64,000 nt of DNA from an uncultured delta proteobacterium (lineage in GTDB: Bacteria; Desulfobacterota; Desulfobacteria; Desulfobacterales; SG8-13): NCBI GenBank assembly GCA_963848135.1, contig CAWKCK010000005.1, forward strand, positions 310,001-374,000, given 5' to 3'. Made by a program: the position numbers and the translations under genes. The notes under the pieces are model-generated. The model was not told the DNA's origin and ran no database searches. It saw only the letters and a program-made list of their open reading frames with translations. This document shows positions 385-44,365 of this stretch, piece by piece; the stretch's first letter is position 1; each line of letters opens with the position of its first letter.

Positions 385-645
385 ATTCAACCGGGCAGGC
401 CCGTAACTCGTATCCCCCGACGGCCAACCCGGGACCCTGAACTCAGAACCCGAACCACCAAACACTAAACACCATTTCTTAATCCCTCAATTCCTCAATC
501 TCCAAATCTCCATTCCTTTCAGCTTTCGCATAGCGCGAAATGCCTTACCCAAACTCGTAATGCGCAACTCGCAACTCCTTTTTTATTCCTTTCAGCTTTG
601 AACTTTGAGCTACTATAACCCGTACCCTGCAACCAGAAACACCGT
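385..645 (+). repeat. Heptamer-mosaic intergenic tract A
   Basis: Runs of GTAACTC/GCAACTC, GAACCCG/GAACTCA, CAAACAC, AATYCCTC and TTTCAGC/TTTGAGC. Confidence 0.8.
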
Positions 646-664
646 CCGCTTCTATCCCTTCTTA

Positions 665-1966
665 TCACCGCGGCTTCTTTTCACCACCGGGTCGGTAGGT
701 CTCACACTTGATGCCGTATTTATCATACACTTTCTCTTCAGCACGGGGGTCGATCTGAAGAACCACCTTCGATGTTCGCCGCATGGGAATGAAATGGACC
801 TGTTCGGATGCCGGCACTATCTCAAGTGCCTCCCTCTTCCGCAGGACATAGGCCAAAAAAGCATACCCTCCGCTGACCACCAGGCTGTATACAAAAAAGC
901 CGGACGGCTCATTGACAAAGGCCATGGCACTGGTTGCCGCGATCGGGCCGATGCTGGCACCGATGCCGTAAACAATCAACAGAACCGAACTGACGGCAAT
1001 AACGTCCTTGGGCTCGAACACATCGTGAGCGCGGGCCACGGAGACCGGATAGACCGTAAAAATGAGCCCCCCGTAAATGCCCGTAACGATAAGGAATAGA
1101 AGGTATGCGTCCTTCGCAATGACCATCATGACGATACTGACCGCGGCAATGGCAAGGCCCAGAACCGATAGCACCCGGGTTCGATCGAAGCGGTCGGAAA
1201 GCTTGCCTATCGGCCACTGCAGAACCAGGCCGCCGATGATGGCGGCGGTCATGAACCATGAAATTTCGGTGACAGTCAGGCCGGCTCGTGTGCCGAACAC
1301 CGGACCGATGGAATGAAACGCACTGTTCAACAGGCCGGAAGCGAAGCAACCCATCATACCGATGGGCGCCTTCCGAATCAACGCAAGTATACTGAATCGT
1401 TCGAGTTTATGCAATTCGGGGTGAATGGAATGGGTCACCGATACCGGCACCATGCTCAAAGCAAGGAAAATGCCGACAATGAAAAAGAGCTCATGGCCGA
1501 GCACATTGCCCACGTTGAGCAGCTGTTGACCCATCGCCATCCCCAAGTAAGTCAACAGCATGTAAACCGCCAGGACACGTCCACGGGAACAGGGTTCGGT
1601 ACTTTCGTTCAACCAGCTTTCAATAACCGTGTAAAGCCCCATGGTGGAGATGCCGGCCAGAAACCGGTATACCGCCCAGACCGCTGGGGAAAAGAAAAGG
1701 CCGTGCAGCAGCGCGATAGCCGTGACGACGGCAGCAAATGTCGCGAACGCGCGAATATGTCCCACCCGCTCCACCAAACGATGGCAAAACAGACCGCCCA
1801 CAACCAAGCCGAAGAAGTATAACGCCATGATCAATCCGGTGAGTTGAACCGGCACGTTCTCGAGGGTTAACCGGAGGCTCAGGGTTGTATTCAACAAACC
1901 GATACCGGTCGTCAACAGCAGGACGGCGGCAAAAATGGCGGGAAATGAAAACAAGGTCGCAGCCAT
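665..1966 (-). CDS. MFS transporter (YcaD-like)
   Basis: 433 aa with about 12 hydrophobic segments, MFS motif 'GKLSDRFDR' and 'VIESWLN'. Confidence 0.9.
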   Translation of the reverse strand: MAATLFSFPAIFAAVLLLTTGIGLLNTTLSLRLTLENVPVQLTGLIMALYFFGLVVGGLFCHRLVERVGHIRAFATFAAVVTAIALLHGLFFSPAVWAVYRFLAGISTMGLYTVIESWLNESTEPCSRGRVLAVYMLLTYLGMAMGQQLLNVGNVLGHELFFIVGIFLALSMVPVSVTHSIHPELHKLERFSILALIRKAPIGMMGCFASGLLNSAFHSIGPVFGTRAGLTVTEISWFMTAAIIGGLVLQWPIGKLSDRFDRTRVLSVLGLAIAAVSIVMMVIAKDAYLLFLIVTGIYGGLIFTVYPVSVARAHDVFEPKDVIAVSSVLLIVYGIGASIGPIAATSAMAFVNEPSGFFVYSLVVSGGYAFLAYVLRKREALEIVPASEQVHFIPMRRTSKVVLQIDPRAEEKVYDKYGIKCETYRPGGEKKPR

Positions 1967-2114
1967 TGTGTCTTTCCACGTAACGTGTTTTCCGATCAGA
2001 CAAATAAAAACGACGCAATCTGCCAGATTTTGCTTCCCTTTGCAATCCCAAAATAATTTACCCCTATGCCCCTATTTTATCACATGTTGCCTGAAATCCT
2101 CACCTTTTAATCGC

Positions 2115-2390
2115 CATCCACAACCCGTAATTCGCAACCCGAATCCTTGCATCCCAAACACAAATTACAAAACACCAAATAAATACCAAATACCAAACAC
2201 TTTCTATTCACATTTGACCTTTCAGCTTTGACCTTTGAGCTCATTTCCCGTTTCCCGCAACCTTTGCCCCGCCTGCCCCTTAACTCCGGGAGATGGTACC
2301 GGGGTTGAATTCCCGAAGGCAAGACGCGCAGTGGCATTCAACCGTGGCGGAACCCTGAACCCAGAACCAGAAACACCAACCACCAAATCC
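2115..2390 (+). repeat. Heptamer-mosaic tract B with embedded 41-bp hairpin
   Basis: GCAACCC, CAAATAC, TTTGAGC and GAACCCT runs. 2304-2344 matches 36398-36438 at 39/41 nt. Confidence 0.8.
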
Positions 2391-2733: not shown

Positions 2734-2964
2734 TTGGGGAATAACGATATGAAACCAAATTTGACCACCAAGGCCCAGATATTATGGGATGCCATTCCCG
2801 GCGATGTCCGCCTCAGAATTTTAAACAATGTATGGTGCGCGAACTGCTCTCAAGTCACCGGTATCGGCAACATCTCGGGCAAAGTTGAAAAGGGCGACCT
2901 GATCCTGCGCGGCGTGTGCACCCGCTGCGGCGGAGACGTCGCCCGGCTCATCGAAAACGATTAA
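2734..2964 (+). CDS. Small hypothetical protein with two CxxC motifs (putative Zn ribbon)
   Basis: 76 aa with WCANC and CTRC. Confidence 0.7.
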   Translation: MGNNDMKPNLTTKAQILWDAIPGDVRLRILNNVWCANCSQVTGIGNISGKVEKGDLILRGVCTRCGGDVARLIEND

Positions 2965-2970
2965 TTTATA

Positions 2971-3188
2971 CCTAATTTGAGCAATTGTTGAGGTTGCTGC
3001 AGATACAAGGAAGATGTCGTTCCGTCCCGCCGCTGGTGGGATCGGCTATGCGGGACGGCATATGACGCCGTAGATGCGGTAAGATCGACAATCCCAAGGG
3101 TTTCAGATTTTAAAATCAAACGATGATAGAATTCCTTAAATATAAAGCAGTTCCCCCTCCATTTAAAATTTGAAACGCTCACTTTAGG
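2971..3188. mobile_element. MITE family 1, copy 1
   Basis: Terminal inverted repeats (TIRs) CCTAATTTGAGC...GCTCACTTTAGG with 5-bp TSD TTATA on both sides. An inverted homologue lies at 61959-63390. Confidence 0.8.
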
Positions 3189-3373
3189 TTATATATTTCA
3201 AGAACCTTGAACGGAACCATATTGGCTGGAGTATAAAAACATTCTGATCAATGTCGGTGAAATTTAGATTTATTTTCCCTACTGCATAACATCCACGGCT
3301 CTTTGCCCTCTCACCCCTGTTTTATGGTGGAAGCCACTCTCCCACCGTTGACGCGAACTCTCCGGTCGCGCCC

Positions 3374-9696: not shown

Positions 9697-9998
9697 AGCA
9701 TAGGTTTTTTTTATATGTAAATAGCAGGATTTGATCTTTCACATGCAATTGGAAGATCCGATCTCTCCAGACAATCCCATTAATTGTCATCCGTGTAATG
9801 AATACAGATACATTGATCTTATCTTGAGAAAATTGAAAAAGGCCAACTACCATTGTAGTCGGTCTTCTTGGTTTCGGAGTTACTAAAAGTTTCGCTTAAT
9901 AGCTGGTAAAAAAACTATTGCCAACATTTTATGGCCACATATAGTGGTTGTTTGAAAAATTAAAAAGTGCGGCATTGAAATTGCATCTGTAAGAAGGC

Positions 9999-10060
9999 CA
10001 TAACTAGTATCAAATCATTCCAGCGGATTCGCAAAGCTCGCTGCTGACTTCGTCGTTCAA
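9999..10060 (+). other. Degenerate integron attC-like site (solo)
   Basis: CATAAC...CAAATCATTCCAGCGGATTCGCAAAGCTCGCTGCTGACTTCGTCGTT is an imperfect palindrome with AAC...GTT ends. Confidence 0.4.
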
Positions 10061-10251
10061 GGTCGAGTTCATATAATGTTGGGATGGTGGCAATTCCTGT
10101 TTTTTATGATCAAACAATTTTTAGACTCCGCATCTCCTGTGCGACGTGGAATACATAGAAAATAGGGTATTCAATTATTTGATAATTAAAGGTTATGAAA
10201 TTTGCTGTGATACTTTCGTAAGGAACAATAAGGATCAAAAGGCTTAATGCA

Positions 10252-11067
10252 TTGGAAGACAATAACTTTACTTTTAACATGGAAATGTCTTATAGACGCA
10301 GCCGCCATATCATGTGGCGTGTCACTCAACTGATATTCCTGGCGTTGGCGGCTGATGTTGCCGTTCTCCTTGTAGAGTTTGCAGTAGGACTTGATCCATT
10401 CATGGATTTCCAGCAACGCCCAGTTCTCTATCTGTATATTCTCGTGGGAACAATCGTGGTATTCGGCGTCTTTGGGGCTGTCTTGGGCTCTCGCGAGGCA
10501 CAGTTGGAGGAGATGGCGCTTAGAGATTCCCTCACTGGATTGCTCAACTCCCGATATCTACATGCGCGCCTGCGTGAAGAACTTGCGTCTGCCAAAAGGC
10601 ATGATAGGCCTACCTCGTTCGTGTTGTTCGATATCGACCATTTCAAGAAGATTAATAATGAATATGGACATCCTGTTGGCGACCATGTGCTTAAACTCAT
10701 AGGCAAGACTATGCTGTCACCGAGCCGTACAGGAGAGATCGCTGCCAGGGTAGGAGGTGAAGAGTTCGCGCTACTCTTGCCGAGCACTTCAGTTCGTGAA
10801 GCAGCAGTTGCGGTTGAACGCTTTCGCGAAGCAATAGGCCAGGGAGCGGTGAGCATCCACAACGGGAAACGAATCAAGGTGACCGTTTCCGCCGGTTTGG
10901 CATGTGTCACCGATGATCCTCAAGACGCAGACTATCTTTACTCTCTCGCGGATTCGGCGCTCTATCAGGCAAAAAAGCAAGGACGTGACAGGATGATCAT
11001 CGGGACACCGAATCATCGGTTGCCAATCAGACCAGATATCAGGGATGTCAACCCCAGCGTTGCATAA
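10252..11067 (+). CDS. Membrane-bound diguanylate cyclase (GGEEF)
   Basis: Two TM segments; motifs DSLTGLLN, DIDHFK, ARVGGEEF. The last codons are supplied by the IS1380 end. Confidence 0.9.
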   Translation: MEDNNFTFNMEMSYRRSRHIMWRVTQLIFLALAADVAVLLVEFAVGLDPFMDFQQRPVLYLYILVGTIVVFGVFGAVLGSREAQLEEMALRDSLTGLLNSRYLHARLREELASAKRHDRPTSFVLFDIDHFKKINNEYGHPVGDHVLKLIGKTMLSPSRTGEIAARVGGEEFALLLPSTSVREAAVAVERFREAIGQGAVSIHNGKRIKVTVSAGLACVTDDPQDADYLYSLADSALYQAKKQGRDRMIIGTPNHRLPIRPDIRDVNPSVA

Positions 11068-12593
11068 AATCTGATAATTTTACTACCATTTGATCACGCT
11101 GTTTTTTGCAACACATCGAGAAAATGTAGAAGATTTTGGCGGACGGCATGATTGGCACTCATTGTTAGGGTCAATTCACCCTGAGGCCGGGTGAAACGAC
11201 CGGCTCTTTGAATGATCCGATGGCGCAGGGTGTCTAACTTTTCAAATGCCCATGCCGCCGGACGTATCGGCAGCGCGCGAGTCATAGCACCAGCCGCTGC
11301 CACCATCTGCACCTCACGGGAAAGGTTATGCGCCATCATTGCACACAGGGTAAACAGCTGGTTGCCGGCAAGCCTTTTGGAAGGGATCACATCCAATACC
11401 GCATCATTTTTGGCATCGCCAAAGATCCTTTCCTGAGATCCACGGCCATTGTGGAACAAGACGACGCTTTTGGCAGATTCGGTCTTATTGGTCACGATGA
11501 CCTTGTAATCGAAATCAAAATCACGGGGCTCAAACAGGTGTAATTGGAGCATGCCTTTTCGCTGTTGCTTGGTTCTCTTACGTGTAAAAATAAATCGATA
11601 GCCCCTTTCCCAGGACTTGGGTTTCCACGCGGTTTCAAAATAGGACCACTGGCTGTCGATTCTGCGCCAGCGTTTTCTGCTTTCGACCATCTCTTTGAGT
11701 TGGGTCAGCCTTTCGAAAGGGACCGAAGCGGAAAACTTTACATGATTGCTGTTAAATATTGACAAGATGTGCTGGCTGAAAAAAGCTGCGTCCGTGCGTG
11801 ACTCCAATACGGCGTCAGGTAACTGTGCTTTCGCTTCTGATAAACAGCTAAGCATGAATTGGCCAGCACCATTGGAATCATGCACATTGCCGGGGCGGTG
11901 GTGAAGGTCGAAGAATTGTCCAGTTTGTGCCACAGTACAAAACAGCGGGTAGTAACTCCGAGCCCCTTTGCTAACCTTGTTAAAACCCACGGCACTACCT
12001 TCAGCGTGTCCTTTGGTGGATTGGACAGAGCCATCAAAGTCCAGGGTTAGTCGGGGTAGATGTTCGCGTTGAAGTCCTTCAATGACCATTGAACGGGACA
12101 ATAGTCGCACATTTTCGACAGCATCAGTTTTCATCTGGGACAGTGCTCTGGAGATGGTGGAAACATCGGGAAGCTTTCGCAAGCCCATTAAGCGCAGCAC
12201 AATTGGATCATCTCGATAGTAATCGATCTCCCGCAGTCGTCGGAACCCGATAAGCAGGTGAATAATGATCAGCATCACAATCAGGTGACGGCCGAAGATC
12301 GGTGAAGCCGTCAAATGTCCAAAACATTTTTTCAGGCGAGCCTTCAGGTTGATCCGCTTGAATAGAAGTTGAAAAATGAGCAGGCCTGAAAAAGATGTGA
12401 GTTGTTGGTCTTCGAAACGGAGCATCGGGATTTTATGGAATTTTGCCGTAATTTGTGCTTTACTGGATTTCACTTGCGGTGGCCTCCTGGATCGGGGTGA
12501 TTGTTTGGTAGACAATCTGTTTATACCCTTATTCCAAAGGCTACCGCAAGCTTTTGACTTCTCATTGTCTCACTTTTTAATGCAACTATAGGG
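11052..12593 (-). mobile_element. IS1380-family insertion sequence
   Basis: Imperfect IRs CCCCAGCGTTGCATAAAA / TTTAATGCAACTATAGGG; TSD TCAA on both sides. Confidence 0.82.
11094..12515 (-). CDS. IS1380-family transposase
   Basis: Motifs LTSFSGL, LDFDGS, YYPLF, RPGNVHD, RTDAAF, HNGRGSQE. Confidence 0.9.
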   Translation of the reverse strand: MSTKQSPRSRRPPQVKSSKAQITAKFHKIPMLRFEDQQLTSFSGLLIFQLLFKRINLKARLKKCFGHLTASPIFGRHLIVMLIIIHLLIGFRRLREIDYYRDDPIVLRLMGLRKLPDVSTISRALSQMKTDAVENVRLLSRSMVIEGLQREHLPRLTLDFDGSVQSTKGHAEGSAVGFNKVSKGARSYYPLFCTVAQTGQFFDLHHRPGNVHDSNGAGQFMLSCLSEAKAQLPDAVLESRTDAAFFSQHILSIFNSNHVKFSASVPFERLTQLKEMVESRKRWRRIDSQWSYFETAWKPKSWERGYRFIFTRKRTKQQRKGMLQLHLFEPRDFDFDYKVIVTNKTESAKSVVLFHNGRGSQERIFGDAKNDAVLDVIPSKRLAGNQLFTLCAMMAHNLSREVQMVAAAGAMTRALPIRPAAWAFEKLDTLRHRIIQRAGRFTRPQGELTLTMSANHAVRQNLLHFLDVLQKTA

Positions 12594-12647
12594 TCAACAC
12601 AAGTAAAGAAATGACCTAAAAATAATCGGTTTCCTCTTCCATGGGGC

Positions 12648-12866
12648 AAGCTATGCATAAATAATTTTTGAACATAAAAATCAGGAACTCTGTAGGTCCA
12701 CAAGATCCACAATATTCCGCTGAGTACTTACGTGGATCTCTTGGGGGCCGCCCCATGGGATCTTTGGGTGGTGTTGACCAACGATGACAGGCTCTGTCCG
12801 TTTCCATTGTTCGCTCATGAATTCCATCTTGATTATACCGCATAATCAAGATGTTATGCATAGCTT
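12648..12866 (-). mobile_element. Internally deleted IS5-family remnant
   Basis: 13-bp perfect IRs AAGCTATGCATAA. The interior encodes a frameshifted 'EQWKRTEPVI..GRPPRDPR..LSGILWIL' transposase N-terminus. Confidence 0.65.
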
Positions 12867-25535: not shown

Positions 25536-25536
25536 T

Positions 25537-31510: not shown

Positions 31511-31521
31511 GGACCCGCCCG

Positions 31522-32109: not shown

Positions 32110-32110
32110 G

Positions 32111-34413
32111 ATGCGCGCATTTCGGGACGTCTCGATCCGATGGAAGCTGAAATTGATCATAATGCTCACCAGCGGCATCGCCCTGCTGTTTGCTTCCGCG
32201 ACCCTGATGTTCAGGGACATCACCAAGACACGCAAGAACCTGCGCAACGATCTCGCCAGCGTGGCCCATGTGATCGGAGCCAACAGCATCGGGGCTATCG
32301 TTTTCAATGATCGGGGCACAGCGGAAACCAACCTGGCGGCCCTCAGCGCCAAGCCATTTGTCGTGTTGGCCAGCATCTACGATCGCGACGGACAACCGTT
32401 TGCCGTGTATATCCACAAGGACGAAAAGGGCCATCTTTCCGTTCCCCCCTGCGGGAGCCCGGCCAATACTTTGACGGCAACTACCTGTTCGTGTTCAATC
32501 CCATCCTACAGGATGAAAAATTAATCGGCACGATTGGCATCCAATACGATCTGAGCGGCACCCAAAGGGAGATATACGCCTCGGTGGCCATATTCGGGCT
32601 CATCGTTTCGGCCGCGTTCCTGATCGCCTGGTTGTTGTCTGCTTCCTTCCAGAAGGTGATCTCCCAGCCGATCCTGAACCTGACCCAGGTGGTCGGGTCT
32701 GTTTCCGAACAAAAGGATTTTTCGGTCCGGGTCCAAAAACACTCCCAGGATGAAATCGGCGTGTTGATCGATGCCTTCAACGGAATGCTCGCCGCGCTCC
32801 AATCCCGCGATCAAAAACTCCAGGAATACCGCGAACACCTGGAAGAACAGGTGACCGCCCGTACGATGGCTTTGAGTGATACCAACAAAATGCTCCAGGC
32901 CGCCAAGGAGGCGGCCGAATCGGCCAGCCGGGCCAAAAGCGAATTCCTGGCCAACATCTCCCATGAAATCCGCACGCCGATGAACGCCGTCATCGGTTTC
33001 GCCGACCTTCTCAAACCGTTGATCACCGAGCCCAAACAGCAAAACTACCTGGCATCCATTAGTTCCAGCGGCAGAAACCTTTTGAGCCTGATCAACGGCA
33101 TCCTGGATTTGTCCAAAATCGAAGCGGGCAAGATGGAACTCGAGTACGAACCGGTCAGGCCGAGCGCATTGTTCGATGAGGTCTACAGGATGTTTGCCGC
33201 GCAAGCCGCTTTGAAGAACATCGCAATGGTGATCGATTTTTCCGGGGATATTCCCGACTGTTTGATCCTCGATGAGGTGCGTTTGAAGCAAATCCTCTTC
33301 AACCTCGTTGGCAACGCCGTCAAATTCACCGAAAAGGGATTCGTGCGCATCGAAGTTCAAAAGCGGGATTGCGTGGACGGCGACGGAATCGACCTGTCGA
33401 TTGCAGTCGAAGACACGGGCATCGGCATACCGGCGCAGTATCACGCCGACATCTTCGAGGCCTTCAAGCAGAAGGACGGCCAAAGCACAAAACGCTTCGG
33501 CGGCACCGGCCTGGGCCTTTCTATCACCAGGCGGCTGGTGGAAATGATGGCTGGAACCATCACCGTTCAAAGCGAAGAAAACAAAGGCAGCCGATTCCAG
33601 ATCCTCATCCCGCACGTTTCGGTCGTACCAGCGGCGATCGAACCCGAGGCCGTGCCCAGTGAAGTCTCTGACGATATTGTCTTCGACCCGGCCTGCATCC
33701 TCGTCGTGGATGACCTGACCCTCAACCGTTCGTTGATAAAGGAGTATCTGGCCCAGACGCCGTTGACAATCATGGAAGCCGAAAACGGCGAAGATGCCGT
33801 GCGCCTGGCCAGGCAACACCAACCGGACCTGATCCTGATGGATATCCGCATGCCGGTCCTGGACGGCATCGAAGCAACGAAACAGATCGGCCGCGACGAG
33901 GCCACCCGAGGCATTCCAGTGGTGGCCCTCACCGCTTCGGTCATGGAAGAAGAAAGAGATTCCCTTATGACCATGGGATTTGCCGGTTTTCTGGACAAGC
34001 CGGTCACCGAAAAAGCTCTTTTGCGGGAACTGAAGCGTTTCATCGGCCATGCCGCTCGGCAGCACGAACCCCAAGAGGCGCCGGCCTCGGACCTGACCCC
34101 CGCCCGCTTCGAACTTTTTCCGCAGATTCTGGAAATCCTCGAAAACGAGTACATGCAACGCTGGACGGCCACCCGGCAAAACCTGTTTTTCGACGAGATC
34201 GACGACTTCGCCATCCGGATCAGCGCCCTTGGCGACGCCCATTCCCTGGCGATACTGAGCCGATATGGAACGGATCTGAGTGCCCATGTCAAGACCTTCG
34301 ACGTGGAACAGGTCAATAGCGCGTTGAACCTCTATCCGCAGATCATTGCCAAGTTGAAATCCTTTTACCTGAAGAGAGAAAGGGAATCTATCGATGGACC
34401 TGAATCGACATAA
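32111..34413 (+). pseudogene. CHASE8-HAMP hybrid histidine kinase (HisKA-HATPase-REC), split by a -1 frameshift
   Basis: ORFs 32111-32524 and 32491-34413 join if the C6 run at 32444-32449 is C7 (VPPLREPGQYFDG). Motifs SHEIRTPMN, GGTGLGL, MDIRMP. Confidence 0.85.
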
Positions 34414-35476
34414 TCGTTTCAAAATACTCATCGTTGATGATGTGCCTAAAAACATCCAAGTCGCCGCCAGCATCCTGCAGAGCGACAGTTACCATATAGC
34501 GTTTGCCCAGGATGGCCCGACGGCTTTGAACCAAGTCGAGAGCAACCGTTTTGACCTTATCCTACTGGATATCATGATGCCGCAGATGGACGGGTTCGAG
34601 GTCTGCCGCCGCATTCGAAACCGGCCGGACAGCCGGGATACGCCCATTATTTTCCTGACAGCCAAGAACGATACCGACAGCGTCGTCAAAGGATTCGCCA
34701 TGGGAGCCATGGATTATTTGAGCAAGCCGTTCAACGGTGCTGAATTGCAGGCCAGGGTCAAAACCCACTTGGAACTCTACCGAACCAAGAAAGCGATCGA
34801 GGAGGTTAACCAGCGTCTGCAGCTGGAAATGGCTGAGCGTATCAAAGCCGAGGAGGAACTCAAACGGAGTGAGGAAAACTACCGCTATTTATCCCTGCAC
34901 GATAATTTGACCGGCCTGTACAATACGCGCCATCTTTATCGATCCTTGGAACAACTGGTCGAAGAGGGCCGCCGCCAGAGCACGACCTTTTCCCTGATCT
35001 TTTTCGATATCGACAACTTCAAGCGCGTGGTCGACACCCACGGCCATCTTAACGGCAGCAAGGCCTTGGCGGAAGTGGCCGCAGTGCTGGACAGCTGCCT
35101 CGCTGAACCCTCTTATGGCGTGGCATACGGTGGTGACGAATTTGTGGCCGTCCTTCCCGGCCATGACAAGACCCAGGCCCTGCAAAAAGCCCAAGAGATC
35201 CGCGCCACGCTGCTGCGAACGACGTTCCTGCCCAACGTCGATAACGGCGTCCGGCTGCAGGCCAGCTTCGGCGCATCAACCTATCCCGACGACGCCGGAA
35301 ACATCATCGCCATTCTTGCCCGGGCGGACCAGGCCATGTTCAACGTGAAAAGCAAAGGTAAAAACGCCGTGGGCGATGTGAACGGCGCCATTCTTTTGCA
35401 AGGTCAGGATGAGGATGCCGGCGAGCCGGTGCGGTCGCCTTTGACTTCGCAGGCCTTGAATGGCGAGGAGGCATGA
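34394..35476 (+). CDS. REC-GGDEF diguanylate cyclase response regulator
   Basis: Receiver domain; DNLTGLYN, DIDNFK, GGDEF. Confidence 0.92.
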   Translation: MDLNRHNRFKILIVDDVPKNIQVAASILQSDSYHIAFAQDGPTALNQVESNRFDLILLDIMMPQMDGFEVCRRIRNRPDSRDTPIIFLTAKNDTDSVVKGFAMGAMDYLSKPFNGAELQARVKTHLELYRTKKAIEEVNQRLQLEMAERIKAEEELKRSEENYRYLSLHDNLTGLYNTRHLYRSLEQLVEEGRRQSTTFSLIFFDIDNFKRVVDTHGHLNGSKALAEVAAVLDSCLAEPSYGVAYGGDEFVAVLPGHDKTQALQKAQEIRATLLRTTFLPNVDNGVRLQASFGASTYPDDAGNIIAILARADQAMFNVKSKGKNAVGDVNGAILLQGQDEDAGEPVRSPLTSQALNGEEA

Positions 35477-35499
35477 TCGACGACCGGCTGTAACCAGCT

Positions 35500-35545
35500 T
35501 GCCCAGAACTCGTAACCCGAAACACGCAACTCGCATCTTGATTGT
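35500..35545 (+). repeat. Short heptamer tract D
   Basis: GAACTCGTAACCCGAAACACGCAACTCGCATC. Confidence 0.65.
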
Positions 35546-35572
35546 TTTTGCTTTCACCTTATAGGATTGAAT

Positions 35573-36127
35573 ATGCCCAAGAAAGCCATTCAAAACTCAC
35601 TACTCCCAACTGAAACAATCGCAAGCAAAATTTACCTCATCCGCGGTCAAAAGGTCATGCTTGACCGGGATCTGGCTGAGCTATATGGGGTGGAAACAAA
35701 AGTGTTGAAACAGGCTGTCCGTCGAAATATTGGTCGTTTCCCGCCGGATTTTATGTTTGAGATTAACAAAAAGGAGTTTGAAACCTTGAGGTCACAAATT
35801 GTGACCTCAAGTTGGGGAGGCCTAAGGTACATGCCAATGGCTTTCACCGAGCAGGGAGTAGCCATGCTCTCGAGCGTATTGAACAGCGACCGCGCCATTC
35901 AGGTGAACATCCAAATAATACGAACCTTCACAAAACTTCGGAGCTTGTTGGCCACGCACAAAGACCTCAAACGTAAAATAGAGGCGATGGAGAAAAAGTA
36001 TGACGAGAACTTCCGGATCGTATTCGAGGCCATAAAGCATCTGTTCGATGAAGAGGAAAAACCGAAAAAGAAGATTGGGTATATAAAAGAGAAAACAAAA
36101 AAATACGGCAAGCGCACGAAAAAATAG
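35573..36127 (+). CDS. ORF6N-domain DNA-binding protein
   Basis: Motifs IYLIRGQKVMLDRDLAELYGV, RFPPDFMF, AFTEQGVAMLS. Confidence 0.9.
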   Translation: MPKKAIQNSLLPTETIASKIYLIRGQKVMLDRDLAELYGVETKVLKQAVRRNIGRFPPDFMFEINKKEFETLRSQIVTSSWGGLRYMPMAFTEQGVAMLSSVLNSDRAIQVNIQIIRTFTKLRSLLATHKDLKRKIEAMEKKYDENFRIVFEAIKHLFDEEEKPKKKIGYIKEKTKKYGKRTKK

Positions 36128-36220
36128 ATAACCGTAATTGGATTGAATTACCCCATGACCCAAACTGGTTTATCATTTTGAATTATGGTCATTATGATTT
36201 GTTTGCTGCTATGTTGAGCA

Positions 36221-36490
36221 GTTCAGGGTTCCACGTTCTGGGTTAAAAGCCATAAACAGCTTGTAACTAAATAACCTGGCTTCATGGTGTTTATAAAACC
36301 ACTTCACTCAATGGGGTTTGGCGAACATTTCGGATCTTGATCAATAGTTTGTGCCGTATCAATCGGTTCAAACCTTTGAACCCAGAACCTTCACCCCGTT
36401 GAATTCCCGAAGGTAAGACGCGCAGCGGCATTCAACCGGGGCGCAACCCAGAACCCTGAACCCAGAACCTAAAGCACCAAACACAATTTA
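36221..36490. repeat. Tract E: inverted GAACCC-heptamer ends around a spacer, plus 41-bp hairpin
   Basis: GTTCAGGGTTCCACGTTCTGGGTT on the left faces AACCTTTGAACCCAGAACC...GAACCCTGAAC on the right. Hairpin 36398-36438 is shared with tract B. Confidence 0.7.
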
Positions 36491-37189: not shown

Positions 37190-38194
37190 ATGGCAGACAC
37201 ATCATTTAAGGCCCTGGTCGTACAAGAAACCGAAGACAAAAAATACTCACGTCAGATCCTCGACAAAACCATAGATGACCTACCCCCTGGAGACGTGGTG
37301 GTCGAGGTTCACTATTCATCGCTGAATTACAAGGATGCGTTATCTGCCAGCGGCAATAAAGGCGTCACGCGCAGCTATCCCCATACGCCCGGCATCGACG
37401 CCGCCGGTGTGGTGGCGGAAAGCACAGACAGTGCGTTCAAACCCGGAGACGAGGTTATCGTCACCAGTTATGATTTGGGCATGAACACGGCAGGGGGATT
37501 TGGCCAATATATTCGCGTCCCCGGCCAGTGGGTGGTTCCCCTGCCCAAAGGGCTGACGTCAAAAGAGGCCATGTGTTACGGGACGGCGGGGTTTACGGCT
37601 GCCCTGTCAGTCTATAAACTGACGGTCCATGGGGGCATTTTGCCGGAGCATGGTGAAGTGCTGGTATCGGGCGCCACGGGAGGCGTCGGCAGTATCGCCG
37701 TGGCGATTTTGTCAAAATTGGGCTACACGGTCGCTGCCGTTAATGGTTTGATCGATGAGTCGGATTATCTGAAAAAAATCGGCGCGCAGCGAATCATCAG
37801 CATCGAAGACGCCTCTGATAAAAGCGGTCGTCCCCTTCTCAAGTCTCTCTGGTCAGGCAGCATCGACACGGTCGGCGGCGATATTCTGGCCACCTCCATC
37901 AAATCCGTGCACGCCAATGCCGTGGTCACAAGTTGCGGCAATGTCGCGTCACCTGAGCTGCCAATCAACGTATATCCCTTTATCCTGCGCGGGGTCACCC
38001 TGGTCGGTATCGATTCCCAGAATTGCCCGATGCCGAACCGGCTAAAGACTTGGGAAAAACTCGCCGTTGAGTGGAAGATCCCAATGATGGAAGCCGTCGT
38101 GGAAGAAATTACCTTGGCCGACCTGGATCAGGCCATCGACCGTATGTTGAAAGGCAAACACAAAGGCCGGGCAGTGGTAAACATGAAAGCCTAA
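37190..38194 (+). CDS. acuI: YhdH/AcuI-family NADPH-dependent (acryloyl-CoA) reductase
   Basis: Motifs YSSLNYKDAL, GTAGFTAAL, GATGGVGS, PFILRGV-L-GIDS. Confidence 0.88.
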   Translation: MADTSFKALVVQETEDKKYSRQILDKTIDDLPPGDVVVEVHYSSLNYKDALSASGNKGVTRSYPHTPGIDAAGVVAESTDSAFKPGDEVIVTSYDLGMNTAGGFGQYIRVPGQWVVPLPKGLTSKEAMCYGTAGFTAALSVYKLTVHGGILPEHGEVLVSGATGGVGSIAVAILSKLGYTVAAVNGLIDESDYLKKIGAQRIISIEDASDKSGRPLLKSLWSGSIDTVGGDILATSIKSVHANAVVTSCGNVASPELPINVYPFILRGVTLVGIDSQNCPMPNRLKTWEKLAVEWKIPMMEAVVEEITLADLDQAIDRMLKGKHKGRAVVNMKA

Positions 38195-38337
38195 AAGCTA
38201 TCTCAAAAATGTTTTTTGGCCCAATCTCCGCGTTGGTTCCTCGTTTCAAGTCCTCGACATACTTCAGTATGCCTGCGGGCTGAAATTCGGATCCGCCTTG
38301 ACCTTGAACCAAAATCCTAATTTTGAGATAGCTTTTA
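38192..38337. mobile_element. MITE family 2
   Basis: 17-bp perfect TIRs TAAAAGCTATCTCAAAA overlapping the acuI stop codon. A partial inverted copy lies at about 6589-6636. Confidence 0.75.
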
Positions 38338-38819: not shown

Positions 38820-39641
38820 TCAGCCTCTCTTTTTAACGATCGGTTTTCCGTTCAAACCATCTATAATTTCCATCAGCCTGGTTTTGCGGGCGTGCTGCTG
38901 CCTCAGATACTGAAGGTACTGGTCCCACTGCATCTGCTTTTTTTGCCGCGCCATGACCGCCGATGCTTTGCGAAGGTATTTGGCTGCCTCCCGGTAGGCT
39001 TTAGGCTTGACTTGGGCGATAAACCGTTCTGCCTTTTTCTTCCAGATGTCCACCGCCCGATCCGGCGCGTGAGATTGAACTGCCGCAGCGACCTCATCTT
39101 CGTCGGCGCCGTACAAACCGAATCCTCCGTTGGAAAGTTGATCATACCAGTACAGCACTTGATCGGGCTTCTTCTCCAGAATGGCAATACCGATGAGTTG
39201 ATCTACCATGGGGTATCGTTTTCTTCCCTCTGGTTCGGGCTCGTCCAAACCGGATGCCGGGAGCGGCCATCCCTTATGTTTCCAGGGCAGGTCGCCCTTT
39301 TCGAGGTAGCGTAACAGAGACTCACGTACTTTGCCCCAAATTTTCACTTTATCTGAAGCTTTCTTGCAATCCGCAAAGGCCTTACGCGAGGGGTAGCGCA
39401 CGAATTCCTCGGCCTGAATGGCCGCAACGGCAGGCCAGTTCTTTTCTTTGGCCCGTATTTCCCGTAATTTTTCGCGCAATCTACTGGCACTGCCGGACCA
39501 TTTCCCCTTTGTGGCCCGAATTCCGATAAGAATCCAGCGTTCGGCGTCTGGATAGCGTCGAGCCGAAATCAACCTTTCGACCAATCGATTGTAACTGCCC
39601 GTTCGTTTGCCCTCCTTGCGTTTTGAGCACTTATCTCGCAA
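38820..39641 (-). pseudogene. 5'-truncated protein resembling the C-terminal helical part of SWIM zinc-finger family proteins
   Basis: Helical-repeat sequence ending ...YREAAKYLRK...LRQQHARKTRLMEIIDGL. The ORF start lies inside heptamer tract F and has no SD. Confidence 0.55.
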
Positions 39642-39750
39642 CCCGCAACTCGCAACAGTATCGTTTCCCCTGGCGCGAAGCGCCTAACCCGTATCCTCGC
39701 ACCCCGGCACCCGGGTCCCGCAACCCGCGCCACCAAACACCGACACTTGA
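39635..39750 (+). repeat. Heptamer-mosaic tract F
   Basis: GCAACCC/GCAACTC runs; GGCGCGAAGCGCC at 39672-39684. Confidence 0.8.
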
Positions 39751-39804: not shown

Positions 39805-40026
39805 ATGACCAGGAAACTAACCGCAATTATTGAGCGTGAGGATGATGGGTTTGTCAGTCTCTGTCCCGAATTGGATGTCGCAAGTCAGGGACGCACAGTC
39901 GACGAGGCCAGAAAAAACCTGCAGGAGGCTCTGGAACTTTTCTTCGAAACAGCCTCACCGGAAGAAATCAAGGACAGGCTACATAACGAAGTTTATATAA
40001 CCCAGGTGGAGATAGCCGTTGGGTAA
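39805..40026 (+). CDS. hicB: HicB-family antitoxin
   Basis: Motif AIIEREDDGFVSLCPELDVASQG-T-DEAR-NL-EA. Confidence 0.88.
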   Translation: MTRKLTAIIEREDDGFVSLCPELDVASQGRTVDEARKNLQEALELFFETASPEEIKDRLHNEVYITQVEIAVG

Positions 40027-40235
40027 ATTACGCATTCTTTCCGGCAAAGAGGTCTGCAAAATAAAAAAAACATGGATTTATGGAAATAAGAAGGCGTGGC
40101 AGCCATATTGCGATTCAGCGGAAAGAAAAAGTTAACACGGTAACGGTGCCCGTACCGGATCACAAAGAGATTCGTATGGGGACCTTGCTTTCAATCATAC
40201 GCCAATCAGGTGTTGCCCGCTCAGAATTCGAATAA
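40019..40235 (+). pseudogene. hicA: HicA-family toxin, frameshifted in a poly-A run
   Basis: MGKLRILSGKEVCKI / KHGFMEIRRRGSH...VPVPDHKEIRMGTLLSIIRQSG. The frame break falls in the A8 run at 40063-40070. Confidence 0.82.
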
Positions 40236-40292
40236 TTCAAACCAATAAACGTTTTTCAAACATCCCGACCCGCAACTCGTAACGCGCAACCC

Positions 40293-41619
40293 GAGGGTGT
40301 TCATAATTTTGTGTCAGTCAAATAAAAAGCTGATATATAAAGCTAAAAGGAGACTGACATGGCAAAAGACGACAGCGAATTTGATTTCCAGAAAGCCCTC
40401 AAAGCCATCCAATCAGGCAAGCCCCTCACCGGTAAAGACGGGGTTCTCACCCCACTGATAAAGAATCTGACAGAAGCAGCCCTCGAAGGGGAGATAGACT
40501 CCCACCTCGGCCAGGAGATAGCTGCCAACCGCAGGAATGGCAAGAGCAAAAAGACGATCAAGACTCTCAATGGATCTTTTGAACTCGACACACCGCGCGA
40601 TCGCGCCGGTACATTTTCGCCCAAGCTGATCAAAAAGCACCAAACGACCCTCAGTGATGAGATTGAAGAAAAAATCCTGGCCCTGTATGGCCTGGGGATG
40701 AGCTATCAAGATATATCCGCCCATCTTGAGGATATCTATGGCATTGAGGTCTCAAAGGGCACCCTGACGGCGATTACCGATAAAATCATCCATACAGTAA
40801 AAGAGTGGCAGGCCCGGGCATTAGAATCGATTTATCCCATTGTCTGGCTGGATGCCATTCACTACAAAATTCGTGAGGACGGCAAGGTCTTCAGCAAAGC
40901 TGTTTACACGATCCTTGGTGTCAATATTGAAGGCCGCAAAGAAGTCCTTGGGCTGTATATTTCAGAGAACGAAGGGGCCAACTTCTGGTTGCAGGTTCTG
41001 ACCGATCTATCCAACCGAGGTGTTGACGATATCCTGATCGCCTGTATCGATGGTCTTAAGGGATTTCCGGAAGCCATCGAAACAATCTTTCCCCAAACGG
41101 AAGTCCAACTTTGTGTTGTGCATCAAATTCGCAACACCTTGAAATATGTTGGTTCAAAGAATCAAAAAGAATTCATGGTCGATCTCAAGCGAGTATACAA
41201 GGCCACTAACAAGGATTTGGCCGAGTCTGAGTTAGACAGGCTTGAAGACAAGTGGAACAACAAATATCCAATTGTCATCAAATCCTGGCGAAACAACTGG
41301 GAGCGGCTCAGTCAATTTTTCAAGTATCCGGATGATATTCGAAGGATCATTTACACGACCAACACCATTGAGGCGGTTCACCGGCAATTCCGAAAATTAA
41401 CCAAGACCAAAGGGGCTTTCCCAAACCAGGACAGCCTGCTCAAACTGCTCTATATGGGTATTCAGAATGCCAGTAAAAAATGGACGATGCCGGTTCAAAA
41501 CTGGTCTTTGACCATATCTCAGTTAGCCATATTTTTTGAAGGAAGGCTGGATAAAGAATTAAGGCTCTGATATGATTGCTAATCAAAAAACAGGCTGACA
41601 CAGAATATTGAACACTCCC
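40293..41619 (+). mobile_element. IS256-family insertion sequence, copy 2
   Basis: Same IRs as copy 1; 8-bp TSD CGCAACCC (40285-40292, 41620-41627); inserted into a heptamer tract. Confidence 0.95.
40359..41570 (+). CDS. IS256-family transposase
   Basis: Protein identical to 26472-27683. Confidence 0.95.
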   Translation: MAKDDSEFDFQKALKAIQSGKPLTGKDGVLTPLIKNLTEAALEGEIDSHLGQEIAANRRNGKSKKTIKTLNGSFELDTPRDRAGTFSPKLIKKHQTTLSDEIEEKILALYGLGMSYQDISAHLEDIYGIEVSKGTLTAITDKIIHTVKEWQARALESIYPIVWLDAIHYKIREDGKVFSKAVYTILGVNIEGRKEVLGLYISENEGANFWLQVLTDLSNRGVDDILIACIDGLKGFPEAIETIFPQTEVQLCVVHQIRNTLKYVGSKNQKEFMVDLKRVYKATNKDLAESELDRLEDKWNNKYPIVIKSWRNNWERLSQFFKYPDDIRRIIYTTNTIEAVHRQFRKLTKTKGAFPNQDSLLKLLYMGIQNASKKWTMPVQNWSLTISQLAIFFEGRLDKELRL

Positions 41620-42110
41620 CGCAACCCGCAACACTCAACACCAATCCCCAAACACAAAACACCAAATACCATTTTTTTCCCTTTCACTGTTCACCTTTGA
41701 GCTCAATTCCCGGTTTCCACTGGCGCGAAGCGCCTAACCCGCACCTCGCAACCCGTAACACGCAACTCGCAACGCTACTCTCGTAACCCGCAACGCGGCA
41801 AACCAAACACAAAACACCAAATACCAAACATTCTCTCGTTGCTTTCAGTTCTCTGCCTACTTCCAGCTTTTAGCCCTTTACCCGCAACACGTAACTCGTA
41901 ACGCGTAACTTGATGGTTACTCCTTTCCCCTCTCACCTGGCGCGAAGCGCCCTACCCGCACCTCGCAACCCGGAACGTTGAACCCGGAACCCTGAACTTT
42001 GAACCCGCATCTTGATTTTTATTCCTTTCAGCATTGAGCATTGACCTTTGAGCTTTCTCCCCTTCCTTTGATCATTCAGCTTTCAGCTTCGAGCTCCAAC
42101 TCCAATTCCC
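41620..42110 (+). repeat. Heptamer-mosaic tract G (continues 40236-40292)
   Basis: Longest tract, with two cycles of GCAACYC > CAAAYAC > TTTYAGC > GGCGCGAAGCGCC (41722, 41939). Confidence 0.85.
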
Positions 42111-42458
42111 CTTTTGAGAAATTAATTCCAATCTTATGCAGATTTATTATTTTCACGGCATTAATATTGCAGCAAATTCAACCGAAATATAGTGATTGTC
42201 AAAAAGAACGCTCCGTTATTTGAACGTTTTTTCTTTACAACCACTTATATCGCCCTTCTATATATCGGAATGTATTTTTGAAAAGCAGTATAATACTTCC
42301 TTAAAAGAATACATGCCAATTCAATAAGTTTATGGCATCTCACAATTTTGGTGAATTTATGGTTACGAAAAAATGACAGTAAAGTGTTTAGACATTCGAT
42401 TATGAAATAGGAATTTAATCTATTGGTACAGACAACGCACCAGCAAAGGAATAATATA

Positions 42459-44093
42459 ATGAGGCGGTTCAAGCAGCAAAGCATAAATGTATTTACGTCT
42501 TTTATACTTACTTTGCTCTTGTCATGCGGAGGTGGCAACGGCGGTAACGGCGGTGACAGCAGCGGCGTTTTGACAGCCACTAACCATACGCCTACGGCCG
42601 TTTTAAGAACCTCTGTTATTAACGGGCTTTACGTCACTTTTGATGCCATTGGTTCATCCGATCCGGATGGCGACCCCCTCACCTTCAATTGGGATTTTGG
42701 CGATGGAAATACTGGAAATGGAAGAATATGCACCTACACGTATAATGCCCCTGGTGCATACACCGTCACTATTACAGTCAGCGATGGGCAATTGAGCGAT
42801 ATCGCCACTCAAACGATCACAGTCGTTCAATCTGCCGTTGCTTTCCCGCAGCCATTCGATGTTAATGCCCTATACGTAGAAGACATTTATGTGGCACTGC
42901 CGCCCACAGGAAGCGACAGCAGTGGCAACGGAAGCCTTGCCGCTCCGTTTGCCACCATCCGTCATGCACTCTCACAAGCGGCGTCAGGCAGTCGTATCCG
43001 TGTGCAGGCCGGCACATACGGCGTTATCGGCTCAGTGGCTGACGTTCATGGCACTGAAACCTACCCCATACTCGTCACGACCGATGGCCAGGTCGTCATT
43101 GATGCCGGCGGTTCGGGCAGCGGCATGCAGATCAGCAACGTATCTTACCTCGTCATTGAAGGGTTAATCTTTCAGAACACCGGTATACACGGATTGAATA
43201 TCGACGACGGCAGCGACTACGCCACTCCCAGCCATCACGTCGTGTTCAGAAACGTCTCCTTTCGAAACATAGGCAGTGGCGGCAACAATGACTGTCTGAA
43301 GATGTCAGGTGTTGACGATTTCTACATCACAGGTTGTGAATTCCAGGAGTGCGATCGAGGTGAGGCCATCGACATGGTCGGCTGCCACGACGGGATCATT
43401 ACCGGCAATTTCTTCCACGATGTTGTGCAAAATGGCGTGCAGACCAAGGGTGGCAGCGCCGACGTGCTCATCCATGGCAATCGTTTCGAAGATATTCCCC
43501 AGCGGGCCATAAATGCGGGAGGCAGCACGGGAAGCCCCTACTTTCGCCCCTTGAATGCCGAATACGAAGCGGCCCGTATTCAGATGGTCGGCAACACCTT
43601 CCTGCGAACCGGCTCAACTCCGGTGGCGTTCGTTGGTTGTGATACGTGCGTGTTTGCCAATAACACCATCATCGAACCCCTCAGCTATGTTGCCCGGATA
43701 CTGGAAGAGAACACCAGCCGGACTGCAGGCCGCGATGGTTATTTTATCAACAATCTTTTGATGTTCAACACCGCTGACATCAACAGCTGGTCTTATGTCA
43801 ATGTCGGACCCAACACCCGGCCCGACACATTCATCTTCGGCTGGAATTTATGGTATGCATTGGATGATCCAGGTTTCAGCGGTCCTGTCTACCAAGGTGG
43901 CTTGCCGGCCGAGTCCAACGCAGTTATACAGCAGGATCCCCTTCTAACCAATTTGGCTGGCGGCGATTTTCACATTATGCAGGGCAGTCCCGCCCAGGGC
44001 GCCGGCCGCAACGTTCCGCGGGGTGCAATGGCCGATTTCGACTATGCACCCTTCAACGATCCACCCAGCATTGGAGCCTTCGAAGTACAATAA
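42459..44093 (+). CDS. Lipoprotein with PKD domain and right-handed parallel beta-helix
   Basis: Lipobox LLSC; PKD motif SSDPDGD...WDFGDG; GSDSSGNGS..PFATI; beta-helix repeats; C-terminal IGAFE. Confidence 0.85.
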   Translation: MRRFKQQSINVFTSFILTLLLSCGGGNGGNGGDSSGVLTATNHTPTAVLRTSVINGLYVTFDAIGSSDPDGDPLTFNWDFGDGNTGNGRICTYTYNAPGAYTVTITVSDGQLSDIATQTITVVQSAVAFPQPFDVNALYVEDIYVALPPTGSDSSGNGSLAAPFATIRHALSQAASGSRIRVQAGTYGVIGSVADVHGTETYPILVTTDGQVVIDAGGSGSGMQISNVSYLVIEGLIFQNTGIHGLNIDDGSDYATPSHHVVFRNVSFRNIGSGGNNDCLKMSGVDDFYITGCEFQECDRGEAIDMVGCHDGIITGNFFHDVVQNGVQTKGGSADVLIHGNRFEDIPQRAINAGGSTGSPYFRPLNAEYEAARIQMVGNTFLRTGSTPVAFVGCDTCVFANNTIIEPLSYVARILEENTSRTAGRDGYFINNLLMFNTADINSWSYVNVGPNTRPDTFIFGWNLWYALDDPGFSGPVYQGGLPAESNAVIQQDPLLTNLAGGDFHIMQGSPAQGAGRNVPRGAMADFDYAPFNDPPSIGAFEVQ

Positions 44094-44184
44094 AATCAGA
44101 AAAACGAGTCTCGCAGAGAAAACAAGGGTTTCTGAAAGTGATTTCATTTAAGCAAAAAATCATTTGCCATTTTCCGGTCAGGCT

Positions 44185-44365
44185 TCCCGCTACCGCAACG
44201 CGCCTCACTCGCAACCCGTAACGCGCGACACGGATCACCAAACACAAATGACGAATCGCAAAATACATATCCCAAATAAAAAATACTAAAGACCAATTAC
44301 AAAACACCAAACACCGCCCTTTTGGCCCTCCCCTTCCTTTGAGTATTGAGCTTTGAGCTCACTAT
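44185..44365 (+). repeat. Heptamer-mosaic tract H
   Basis: GCAACCC, CAAACAC/CAAATAC and TTTGAGC runs. Confidence 0.75.

Follow-up and report, generated by a model that had tools for sequence, protein, structure and literature searches.

Heptanucleotide repeat tracts in an uncultured delta proteobacterium: probable slippage arrays in rearrangement-prone spacers

To our knowledge, few features of bacterial non-coding DNA are as common and yet as unexplained as tandem arrays of heptanucleotides, with regard to the period of seven, to the choice of the unit and to the role of the arrays. The short tandemly repeated repetitive (STRR) sequences of filamentous cyanobacteria are such heptanucleotide repeats, reportedly described by Mazel and co-workers in 1990. 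Here, we analyze eight tracts of degenerate heptamers found in a stretch of 64,000 nucleotides (the window) from the genome of an uncultured delta proteobacterium of the order Desulfobacterales; the window corresponds to positions 310001-374000 of contig C5 (GenBank CAWKCK010000005.1, assembly GCA_963848135.1). The assembly of this source genome, G000, comprises 6.03 Mb in 18 contigs with 50% G+C (contigs are denoted by C-numbers, related genomes by other G-numbers), and its dsrA scored 611 bits against a cut-off of 393, which identifies an organism of the sulfate- or sulfite-reducer type. We consider it probable, at roughly six chances in ten, that the tracts are slippage-driven heptamer lattices, locally copied, that persist in rearrangement-prone spacers and possibly promote rearrangement there.

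The tracts have in common with STRR sequences the tandem 7-base units, the presence of several families per genome, the dispersed and mostly intergenic location and the sharing within a lineage. The differences concern the unit sequences (GYAACNC, CAAAYAC, TTTSAGC and GAACCNN), which are not known from the cyanobacterial families; the host, which is of a dsrA-bearing sulfate-reducer lineage; and the arrangement, since here the families stand in series on one strand and in a locally recurring order.

The GGGNATC repeats of Xanthomonas and Nostoc are reported to prefer four units, to form G-quadruplexes and to have a higher genomic stability around them, and transcription is described for the majority of the GGGAATC repeats (Rehm et al. 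2015, PMC4692102). They resemble the present tracts in being genome-wide heptamer arrays, over-represented in non-coding DNA, variable in unit number and close to gene ends; they differ in that GGG here occurs on the opposite strand from GCAACCC and GTAACCC only, CAAAYAC and TTTSAGC being devoid of G runs, and in that the tracts lie at synteny breaks, whereas the GGGNATC repeats are placed in stable surroundings. In the window, there is no series of at least four consecutive units each with a G-run of at least three, as a quadruplex would need, because GCAACCC and GTAACCC alternate with GCAACTC, GTAACGC and GCAACAC; long pure arrays elsewhere in G000 (C3:618762-618948) would provide it.

TAACTGA direct repeats occur in Beggiatoaceae, cyanobacteria and Bacteroidetes, while spacers with several heptamer families are found in Microcystis, Gramella and Aequorivita and close relatives have shorter, repeat-free spacers; in one sample of repeats located between stop codons the chromosomal orientation was single, and the roles proposed concern TAACTGA repeats just upstream of start codons and a cold-shock protein that would bind one heptamer per protein (MacGregor 2015, PMC4679880). 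The likeness consists in intergenic heptamer direct repeats common to distant lineages; the difference is that the sets of the Guaymas genome mostly face the nearby start codon, whereas the orientation here is independent of the genes, and the unit is another one. Geobacter metallireducens has heptanucleotide elements made of four GGACCGG or five MTYCTGA units, present also inside genes and proposed to be regulatory (Aklujkar et al. 2009, PMC2700814). They share with the present arrays the heptanucleotide tandem design, the dozens of copies and a genome of deltaproteobacterial type, and they are uniform and of fixed unit number, unlike the variable, degenerate and chained arrays found here.

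Two other systems have to be considered. Integrons also place a repeated sequence between small accessory genes, toxin-antitoxin (TA) pairs included, but the tracts have no IntI nearby and consist of direct repeats rather than of imperfect inverted repeats folding as a long hairpin; the genes between them lie on both strands and have their own promoter-like sites, and the tracts also flank backbone or housekeeping genes. An attC array was rejected on these grounds: no Phage_integrase was detected in the window, the palindrome has only a 5-bp stem and a 3-nt loop, and the genes are not co-oriented. Repetitive extragenic palindromic (REP) sequences are palindromes of 20-40 nt that occur in hundreds of copies and are tied to the RAYT transposase in enterobacteria and pseudomonads; with them, and with the bacterial interspersed mosaic elements (BIMEs), the tracts share the extragenic location and the mosaic of short motifs with a small palindrome, and they differ in that their palindromic core, of 13 nt, has 7 copies, tandem heptamers making up most of each tract.

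Extent and class of the tracts

The heptamers were assigned to five families, A (GYAACNC), B (ACHAAAY, equivalent to CAAAYAC), C (TTTSAGC), D (GAACCNN) and E (TCYAAAA), and strict arrays were scored as three units with at most one to three mismatches, depending on the family. The chance control was a Markov-3 simulated genome, the lineage control was the reversed motif pattern, and the comparison covered 30 relatives (15 congeners, 3 further genera of their family and, within the order, 12 further families), hence 31 genomes in all.

The eight tracts listed in a preliminary description of this DNA are all present at their places: tract 1 (385-645), tract 2 (2115-2390), tract 3 (27800-28010), tract 4 (35495-35545), tract 5 (36221-36490), tract 6 (39616-39750), tract 7, also called tract G (40236-42110), and tract 8 (44185-44365). 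Tandem Repeats Finder gave period-7 arrays in each of them, and the small vocabulary ascribed to them was recovered as well, in the form of degenerate GYAACNC, CAAAYAC, TTTSAGC and GAACCNN. Genome-wide, G000 holds 125 strict arrays versus 1 in the Markov-3 control, and the window, with 1.06% of the genome, accounts for 27 of them (A 12, B 6, C 6 and D 3). Only 11 of the 125 are inside open reading frames (ORFs) of at least 100 aa, the other 114 being outside; they spread over nine contigs, with a strong clustering in few regions. At one threshold, the genome contains 74 tracts of period 7, versus 25 of period 8 and 37 of period 6.

Regarding the relatives, three GYAACNC units in a row were found in 13 of the 15 congeners, in 2 of the 3 other genera of the family and in 2 of the 12 other families of the order, with none for the reversed GYAACNC control in all 31 genomes; CAAAYAC arrays of three units occur in 13 of the 15 congeners, and the reversed-pattern controls for the two motifs gave 0 or 1. 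Four GYAACNC units in a row occur in at least 122 stretches from many phyla; among the matches listed, the arrays of distant phyla are mostly lone and intergenic, and further heptamer vocabularies are found near 33 of the 122 loci of other phyla.

The tracts are probably STRR-like heptanucleotide simple-sequence arrays, of a repeat class typical of this lineage: tandem 7-base units, intergenic dispersal, shared families and unit turnover at orthologous sites, which characterize that class, are all observed. The class is already known in cyanobacteria, Xanthomonas, Beggiatoaceae and Geobacter, and the present finding is a well-documented further example of it; new details are the genus-wide vocabulary, the kept 7-base register, the orientation independent of skew and genes, and the clustering in islands of TA modules and insertion sequences (IS) and at synteny breaks. 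A literature search that paired heptamer repeats with Desulfobacter gave no paper combining both among the matches listed.

Other identities were discarded. A long dispersed element, such as a composite of the BIME type or of the miniature inverted-repeat transposable element (MITE) type, did not emerge, since BLAST of each tract against the genome gave no long shared piece, the matches between tracts being limited to a stem-loop piece of 65-100 nt and to similarity at the level of the arrays; likewise, the tracts are not MITEs themselves, as their lengths differ and they are not mutually alignable. In an Rfam scan of the window, tRNA-Cys alone reached the gathering score. Finally, a coding reading was abandoned: a minus-strand Shine-Dalgarno-like site followed by ATG is present in the linker between the B and C arrays of G005 and in one tract of the window, and it is absent from the others.

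Register, order and polarity

The transition from A to B units occurs at an offset of 5 mod 7 in 6 of 6 cases in the window, in 3 of 3 strict cases in G000 and in 4 of 8 cases in the loci of relatives, against an expectation of 1 in 7; at this offset, A, B and D can be read as in-register variants of a single unit, NNAACNC. The boundary is in fact a gradient that changes unit by unit, as in GCAACCC GCAACAC TCAACAC CAATCCC CAAACAC, and passage through the T-run, the C arrays and the hairpin resets the register.

Unit turnover is visible at orthologous sites. Tract 2 has its ortholog in G003, with the A>B>C order preserved and at ~150-166 nt upstream of the start codon of the MFS transporter gene in both genomes. 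Right behind the GGDEF stop codon, the units are of the A type in G000 and of the B type (CAAAYAC-like) in G005. A conserved small membrane protein (MYFPYLI...) has a CAAAYAC array immediately before its ATG in G000 (C7:35554-35595), G003 and G007; the array counts 5 to 7 units, the number differing among the three species, and no ribosome-binding site is visible. Arrays that persist at orthologous sites yet differ by whole units behave as slippage arrays, and this behavior, together with the kept A>B register, contradicts the view, put forward earlier, that the tracts are not simple slippage microsatellites.

The hairpin core, GGCGCGAAGCGCC, is 13 nt long with a 5-bp stem and a GAA loop; its folding energy is ~-6 kcal/mol, with z-scores from -0.3 to -1.7 versus shuffled sequences, hence it is not unusual in this respect. 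It has 5 exact copies in the 6.03 Mb, while its reverse complement has 0, and with the 2 degenerate copies the total rises to 7, all on the + strand of C5 and each between a C array and A units. The core is embedded in a conserved stretch of 35-45 nt, TTTCAGC-TGGCGCGAAGCGCC-TTACCCGCA. With at most one mismatch, it is absent from the 30 relatives searched; a diverged motif centred on GCGAAGC stands upstream of the hicBA homologue of G002, so that a search for the exact core is too strict to date the motif.

As for the order of the motifs, the series GYAACNC > CAAAYAC > T-run > TTTSAGC > hairpin > GYAACNC recurs as claimed in tracts 1, 2, 3, 6, 7 and 8, with two cycles in tract G, and the cyclic order A>B>C>hairpin>A is found again at 691-692 kb of C5. 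The B arrays of G000 outside C5 are solitary. Among 24 distinct B arrays (23 in relatives and 1 in G000), 12 form inverted pairs, 3 follow an A array, 2 precede one and 1 precedes a C array, this last being the G005 junction orthologous to tracts 4-5; the tracts of G001 are made of alternating A and B arrays. These contexts rule out a motif grammar valid for the whole lineage: the order is a matter of local inheritance on C5 and its orthologous sites.

The bias toward the + strand, regardless of the flanking genes, was also recovered, with 27 of the 27 strict arrays of the window on +. Taking the sign of the GC skew as a proxy for the replichore, a replichore rule was dismissed, as the A arrays are 10 on + and 2 on - at positive skew and 20 on + and 3 on - at negative skew (Fisher p = 1.0); a transcription rule fails as well, with A loci 9+/3- between + genes and 5+/2- between - genes. 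The A loci face + in 10 of 10 cases on C5 and 7 of 7 on C4, and they are 6+ and 5- elsewhere; the GC skew is positive throughout C4 and negative throughout C5. In the syntenic block of G003 the polarity is the same as in G000, while elsewhere in G003 and in G001 the orientation is coherent over short blocks only and flips between neighboring tracts. A direct-repeat lattice by its nature places all the arrays of one tract on the same strand; in addition, the C5 tracts share the young core of 35-45 nt, which points to modules copied locally and would account for both the recurring order and the common polarity there.

Synteny breaks, flexible islands and the origin of the tracts

The proposal that the tracts are handles of a gene-cassette system finds partial support as an association with flexible islands and breakpoints, and none as a mechanism. 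The claim that they flank cassette-like genes is similarly divided: the hicBA homologue is bracketed by tracts also in G002, but the MFS gene, which is 81% identical and syntenic in G003 (contig C21), belongs to the backbone, because both the gene and tract 2 are orthologously conserved there, and is no cassette. The comparison of syntenic loci located breakpoints at two tracts, 4 and 6. With 8 congeners, G000 shares the block 29419-35484 at 85-91% identity, and this homology ends at tract 4; the IclR and ADH genes are 1.7 kb apart in G003, with one gene between two tracts, and 30 kb apart in G000. The ORF at 38820-39641 corresponds to residues 390-653 of a protein whose intact form, in G003, has 653 aa (BLASTP, 84% over 264 residues); its break at ~39616 coincides with the outer edge of tract 6, and a search of G000 for the remaining G003 segment gave no match anywhere.

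Concerning the neighboring genes, an enrichment in TA modules was found, as 10 of the 14 matches to TA toxins (four families) lie no more than 5 kb from an array of family A, B or C, versus 0.78 expected and a maximum of 4 in 2000 randomizations; the other array-rich regions of G000 are full of TA pairs, IS elements and polysaccharide genes. The hicBA homologues have 81% identity in G002 and 72% in G001; in G002, hicBA has same-strand period-7 tracts on both sides and a different left neighbor, and its flanks are not alignable with those of G000. The TTGACA promoter-like site upstream of hicBA is also present upstream of its homologues. The array-rich regions of G001 and G003 carry ValRS, NadC, LepA, FabH, flagellar and other ordinary genes, and in G001 mosaic tracts of like build separate housekeeping genes; in contig C1 of G001, three ORF6N copies and an Mrr unit were found to be devoid of period-7 tracts.

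No dedicated enzyme is apparent in the window, in agreement with the preliminary description: Pfam revealed neither a tyrosine recombinase nor a Y1 transposase, and DDE transposases only. Genome-wide, 3 of the 23 matches to Phage_integrase are within 5 kb of the arrays, none of the 23 being in C5:310-354 kb, and there are four Y1_Tnp matches, one of which is an 88-aa open frame (C5:696141-696392) at 4 kb from the tracts at 692 kb of C5. Public reads were available from four sediment metagenome runs of one study, the run search having matched DNA contigs and no RNA run, and about a quarter of the sampled words was recovered, as short contigs; the joints between tracts have short sides of 20-48 nt at 90% likeness and resemble other tract combinations of related organisms, so that these joints, coming from short contigs only, speak neither for nor against excision, circles or length variation.

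In the reading that we prefer, each tract would be a degenerate lattice of direct 7-base repeats, changing its length in 7-base steps by slipped-strand mispairing or unequal exchange; point mutations of single units would be re-amplified into sub-arrays, and whole modules would be copied locally among the neighboring tracts of C5. The tracts have stayed at given intergenic sites since the species of the genus diverged; they accumulate in the long spacers of the flexible genome, which also contain TA modules, MITE-like repeats and insertion sequences, and they border segments that were inserted, deleted or replaced. They may be fragile or recombinogenic DNA that tolerates, and possibly favors, illegitimate recombination and transposon insertion with no need for a dedicated enzyme.

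Several points weigh against this reading. Slippage alone leaves unexplained the order-wide recurrence of the same heptamers and, among the matches listed, the GYAACNC arrays in many phyla; the persistence of the tracts since the split between G000 and G003, whose genes are 81% identical, suggests maintenance or selection. The A loci of C4 and C5 face one way despite their opposite GC skew, and for C4 there is no marker comparable to the shared core. The TA matches are clustered in 3-4 islands, so that the co-localization test overstates their independence, and the occurrence of hicBA with flanking tracts in two species, next to different left neighbors, is as compatible with a unit that travels together with its tracts as with breakage at fragile sites.

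One alternative, which we judge quite unlikely, is that gene cassettes are joined at the module TTTSAGC - hairpin - GYAACNC - CAAAYAC; the recombinase of such a system would be encoded elsewhere, or the hairpin would be recognized in single-stranded form. Equally improbable is the corollary that small accessory units, such as hicBA, brnTA, higBA and ORF6N, move with or between such junctions, and we give no better prospects to the general form of the idea, whereby the series of TTTSAGC array, GCGAAGC hairpin, GYAACNC array and CAAAYAC array bounds a mobile unit, made of TA operons or other small accessory genes with heptamer tracts at their ends, and the tracts are substrates of an undescribed strand-specific exchange, guided by homology or by an enzyme encoded elsewhere. 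Boundaries of this kind would explain the common polarity, the gene cut at tract 6 and the bracketing of hicBA in two species. They agree with the position of the truncated gene, which stops at the outer edge of tract 6, with the co-localization of TA genes and arrays, and with G002, where hicBA combines same-strand tracts on both sides, the upstream GCGAAGC-centred motif and another left neighbor; moreover, at 691-692 kb of C5 two consecutive and unrelated TA operons (BrnT and HigB) are each preceded by the module, as is hicBA in the window. However, the MFS gene and tract 2 are vertically conserved, like-built tracts lie between the housekeeping genes of G001, and the flanked genes face both directions; the hairpin core has only 7 copies, a 5-bp stem and weak z-scores, and the flanks of the two hicBA copies are unalignable even if the genes are 81% identical. 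In addition, the window has no recombinase, integrases are not enriched near the arrays (3 of 23 within 5 kb), the nearest Y1 transposase match, relative to the tracts at 692 kb of C5, is an 88-aa fragment 4 kb off, and the TA array of C4 uses other junction repeats.

Control of expression is an unlikely origin, too: the tracts would act as C-rich and G-poor stretches for Rho loading, as spacers of promoters or ribosome sites, or as binding arrays for single-strand-binding proteins of the cold-shock type, and their length would tune the neighboring genes. The CAAAYAC array that abuts the start codon of the small membrane protein in three species is consistent with this role, as are the many arrays within tens of bases of gene ends and the proposals published for the TAACTGA (PMC4679880) and GGGAATC (PMC4692102) repeats; the orientation, instead, is unrelated to the direction of the flanking genes, it flips in G001 between successive co-directional gene pairs, and the unit families interchange at orthologous sites. 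Lastly, we regard as highly improbable that the tracts mark healed breaks, to whose ends, at sites of insertion or deletion, a polymerase copying a short template in 7-base steps would have added the heptamers. A tract that starts exactly at the gene cut, a register kept across the unit families and the recurrence of the same units in distant lineages, among the matches listed, would suit such repair; yet no candidate enzyme came to light, slippage predicts the register and the gradients just as well, the tracts persist at orthologous sites that are unbroken, and the inverted pairs (12 of the 24 B arrays) are not expected from end addition.

Regarding its significance, this locus indicates that unit families interconvert in register within one lattice, that neither transcription nor the skew linked to replication determines their orientation, and that in G000 the arrays mark flexible islands as well as the precise limits of rearrangements. 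Should they be recombinogenic, genome plasticity in uncultured sulfate reducers could be predicted from them at little cost; if they were the ends of cassettes, they would denote a new route of gene exchange.

Anatomy of the window and other repeats

Except for tract 5, all the tracts are on the + strand. Tract 1 lies between the tRNA-Cys gene (20-94, - strand) and the 3' end of the MFS transporter gene; it consists of a D/B array, an 8-mer run, one TTTCAGC, a degenerate hairpin, a GYAACNC array and a TTTSAGC array, and its counterpart in G003 is a 167-nt gap that holds remnants only. The MFS gene (665-1966, - strand; Pfam MFS_1, 1.6e-30) separates it from tract 2, in which GYAACNC, CAAAYAC and TTTSAGC units are followed by a 50-nt stem-loop element and by GAACCNN. 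The stem-loop piece recurs at 36398-36462 (91% over 65 nt), C17:53553-53655 and C5:691279-691337; its search in the relatives used a pattern one base longer than the window copies, which matched the copy at 691 kb of C5 only, and is a weak negative. Tract 3 starts ~50 nt from the end of an IS256 copy and comprises degenerate TTTSAGC, a CAAAYAC array, a TTTSAGC array, the hairpin core (27916-27928) and three GYAACNC arrays.

Tract 4 is a short degenerate GYAACNC lattice placed directly after the stop codon of a GGDEF response-regulator gene. Between tracts 4 and 5 lies an ORF6N-domain gene (35567-36127, + strand; Pfam ORF6N, 3.2e-37), which is multi-copy and variably placed in relatives, with other positions in G005, G008 and G001. 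Tract 5 has heptamers on both strands: unique DNA is enclosed by a GGTTC... arm (36221-36245) and by GAACC... arms (36370-36471), and the 50-nt stem-loop element is also part of the tract; being mostly an inverted GGTTC.../GAACC... pair, it carries a minus-strand arm. It belongs to a dispersed element of ~240 nt (36149-36389) with inverted heptamer arms at its ends, other copies of which are at C3:22889-23066 and C17:1287538-1287722; inverted D pairs occur at no fewer than 8 places in G000.

The truncated gene described above (38820-39641, - strand) lacks its 5' part, and its break abuts tract 6, which has one TTTGAGC, a GYAACNC array, the hairpin core (39672-39684), degenerate GYAACNC and CAAAYAC units. 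Downstream of it come the TTGACA site and then hicB (39805-40026, + strand; a weak match to Pfam UPF0150), followed by a 51-aa hicA-like ORF (40080-40235, + strand) that precedes tract 7a. The homologues of this ORF in G002 and G001 start earlier, right after hicB, so that in G000 it may be damaged at its 5' end.

The last bases of tract 7a (40236-40292) are the left CGCAACCC copy (40285-40292) of the 8-bp target duplication produced by an IS256-family element (40293-41619, + strand; transposase 40359-41570, Pfam Transposase_mut, 1.8e-107) inserted in a GYAACNC array. Tract G is thus one tract split by the insertion, and the IS is not part of the repeat tract. Its right part, tract 7b (41620-42110), has two cycles of the motif module: A, B, C, hairpin (41722-41734), A, B, degenerate C, A, hairpin (41939-41951), A>D, C and C. 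The IS256 copy beside tract 3 (26423-27750) is identical to the one in tract G, 12.5 kb apart and in the opposite orientation; four full copies exist in G000, these two and two on C18, one of the latter between opposite-facing TTTSAGC arrays (C18:724718 and C18:726866). The three besides that in tract G have the duplications TATCCGAC and AAAAAAGT and a 13-nt direct repeat. Between tracts 7b and 8 there is a gene for a PKD/beta-helix protein (42423-44093, + strand), with a single 72% DNA match, in one other family, among the relatives searched; tract 8 has GYAACNC units, a long degenerate CAAAYAC lattice and a TTTSAGC array.

Other repeats were noted in the window. At 2964-3195 lies a dispersed repeat of ~228 nt, of which G000 has at least 13 copies and the congeners have many; it contains a palindrome built on TTTAAAATTTGAAAC that also scores as period 7. 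The stretch 28883-29149, of ~265 nt, is dispersed in near-full form at more than 20 places of G000 (82-95% identity), occurs also in G006 and G007 and has no match in Rfam; its first 30 nt are also found alone at many sites, several of them in the array-rich part of C4 and one beside the tract at 691 kb of C5. Just after the ADH gene, a MITE-like repeat of ~146 nt (38192-38337) is delimited by 16-nt terminal inverted repeats, AAAAGCTATCTCAAAA and TTTTGAGATAGCTTTT, and has ~45 BLAST matches in G000 and many in relatives, including one from another family of the order (G019).

Outside the window, C4:183800-193100 (positions 9800-19100 of locus L173) has a row of co-oriented TA pairs, namely DUF433/DUF5615, three MNT/HEPN-HepT pairs and PIN, whose junctions have a hairpin, CATAAAATCG...CGATTTTAT, and 9-base repeats (AACCAATNN) without the heptamer module. 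Unbroken homopolymer runs at C3:1082794-1082997 (~190 A) and C17:142360-143101 (~730 T) may be assembly artefacts. Past the last tract, the window has a 201-aa ORF (46679-47284) matching Pfam Neur_chan_memb, the transmembrane region of pentameric neurotransmitter-gated ion channels (1.7e-11), and, 9 kb beyond that tract, a Phd/YefM-ParE TA pair (52927-53535); finally, a 264-bp tandem repeat of 4.7 copies with 95% identity (57691-58925) is part of a gene (56314-59181) that encodes a von Willebrand factor A protein of 955 aa.

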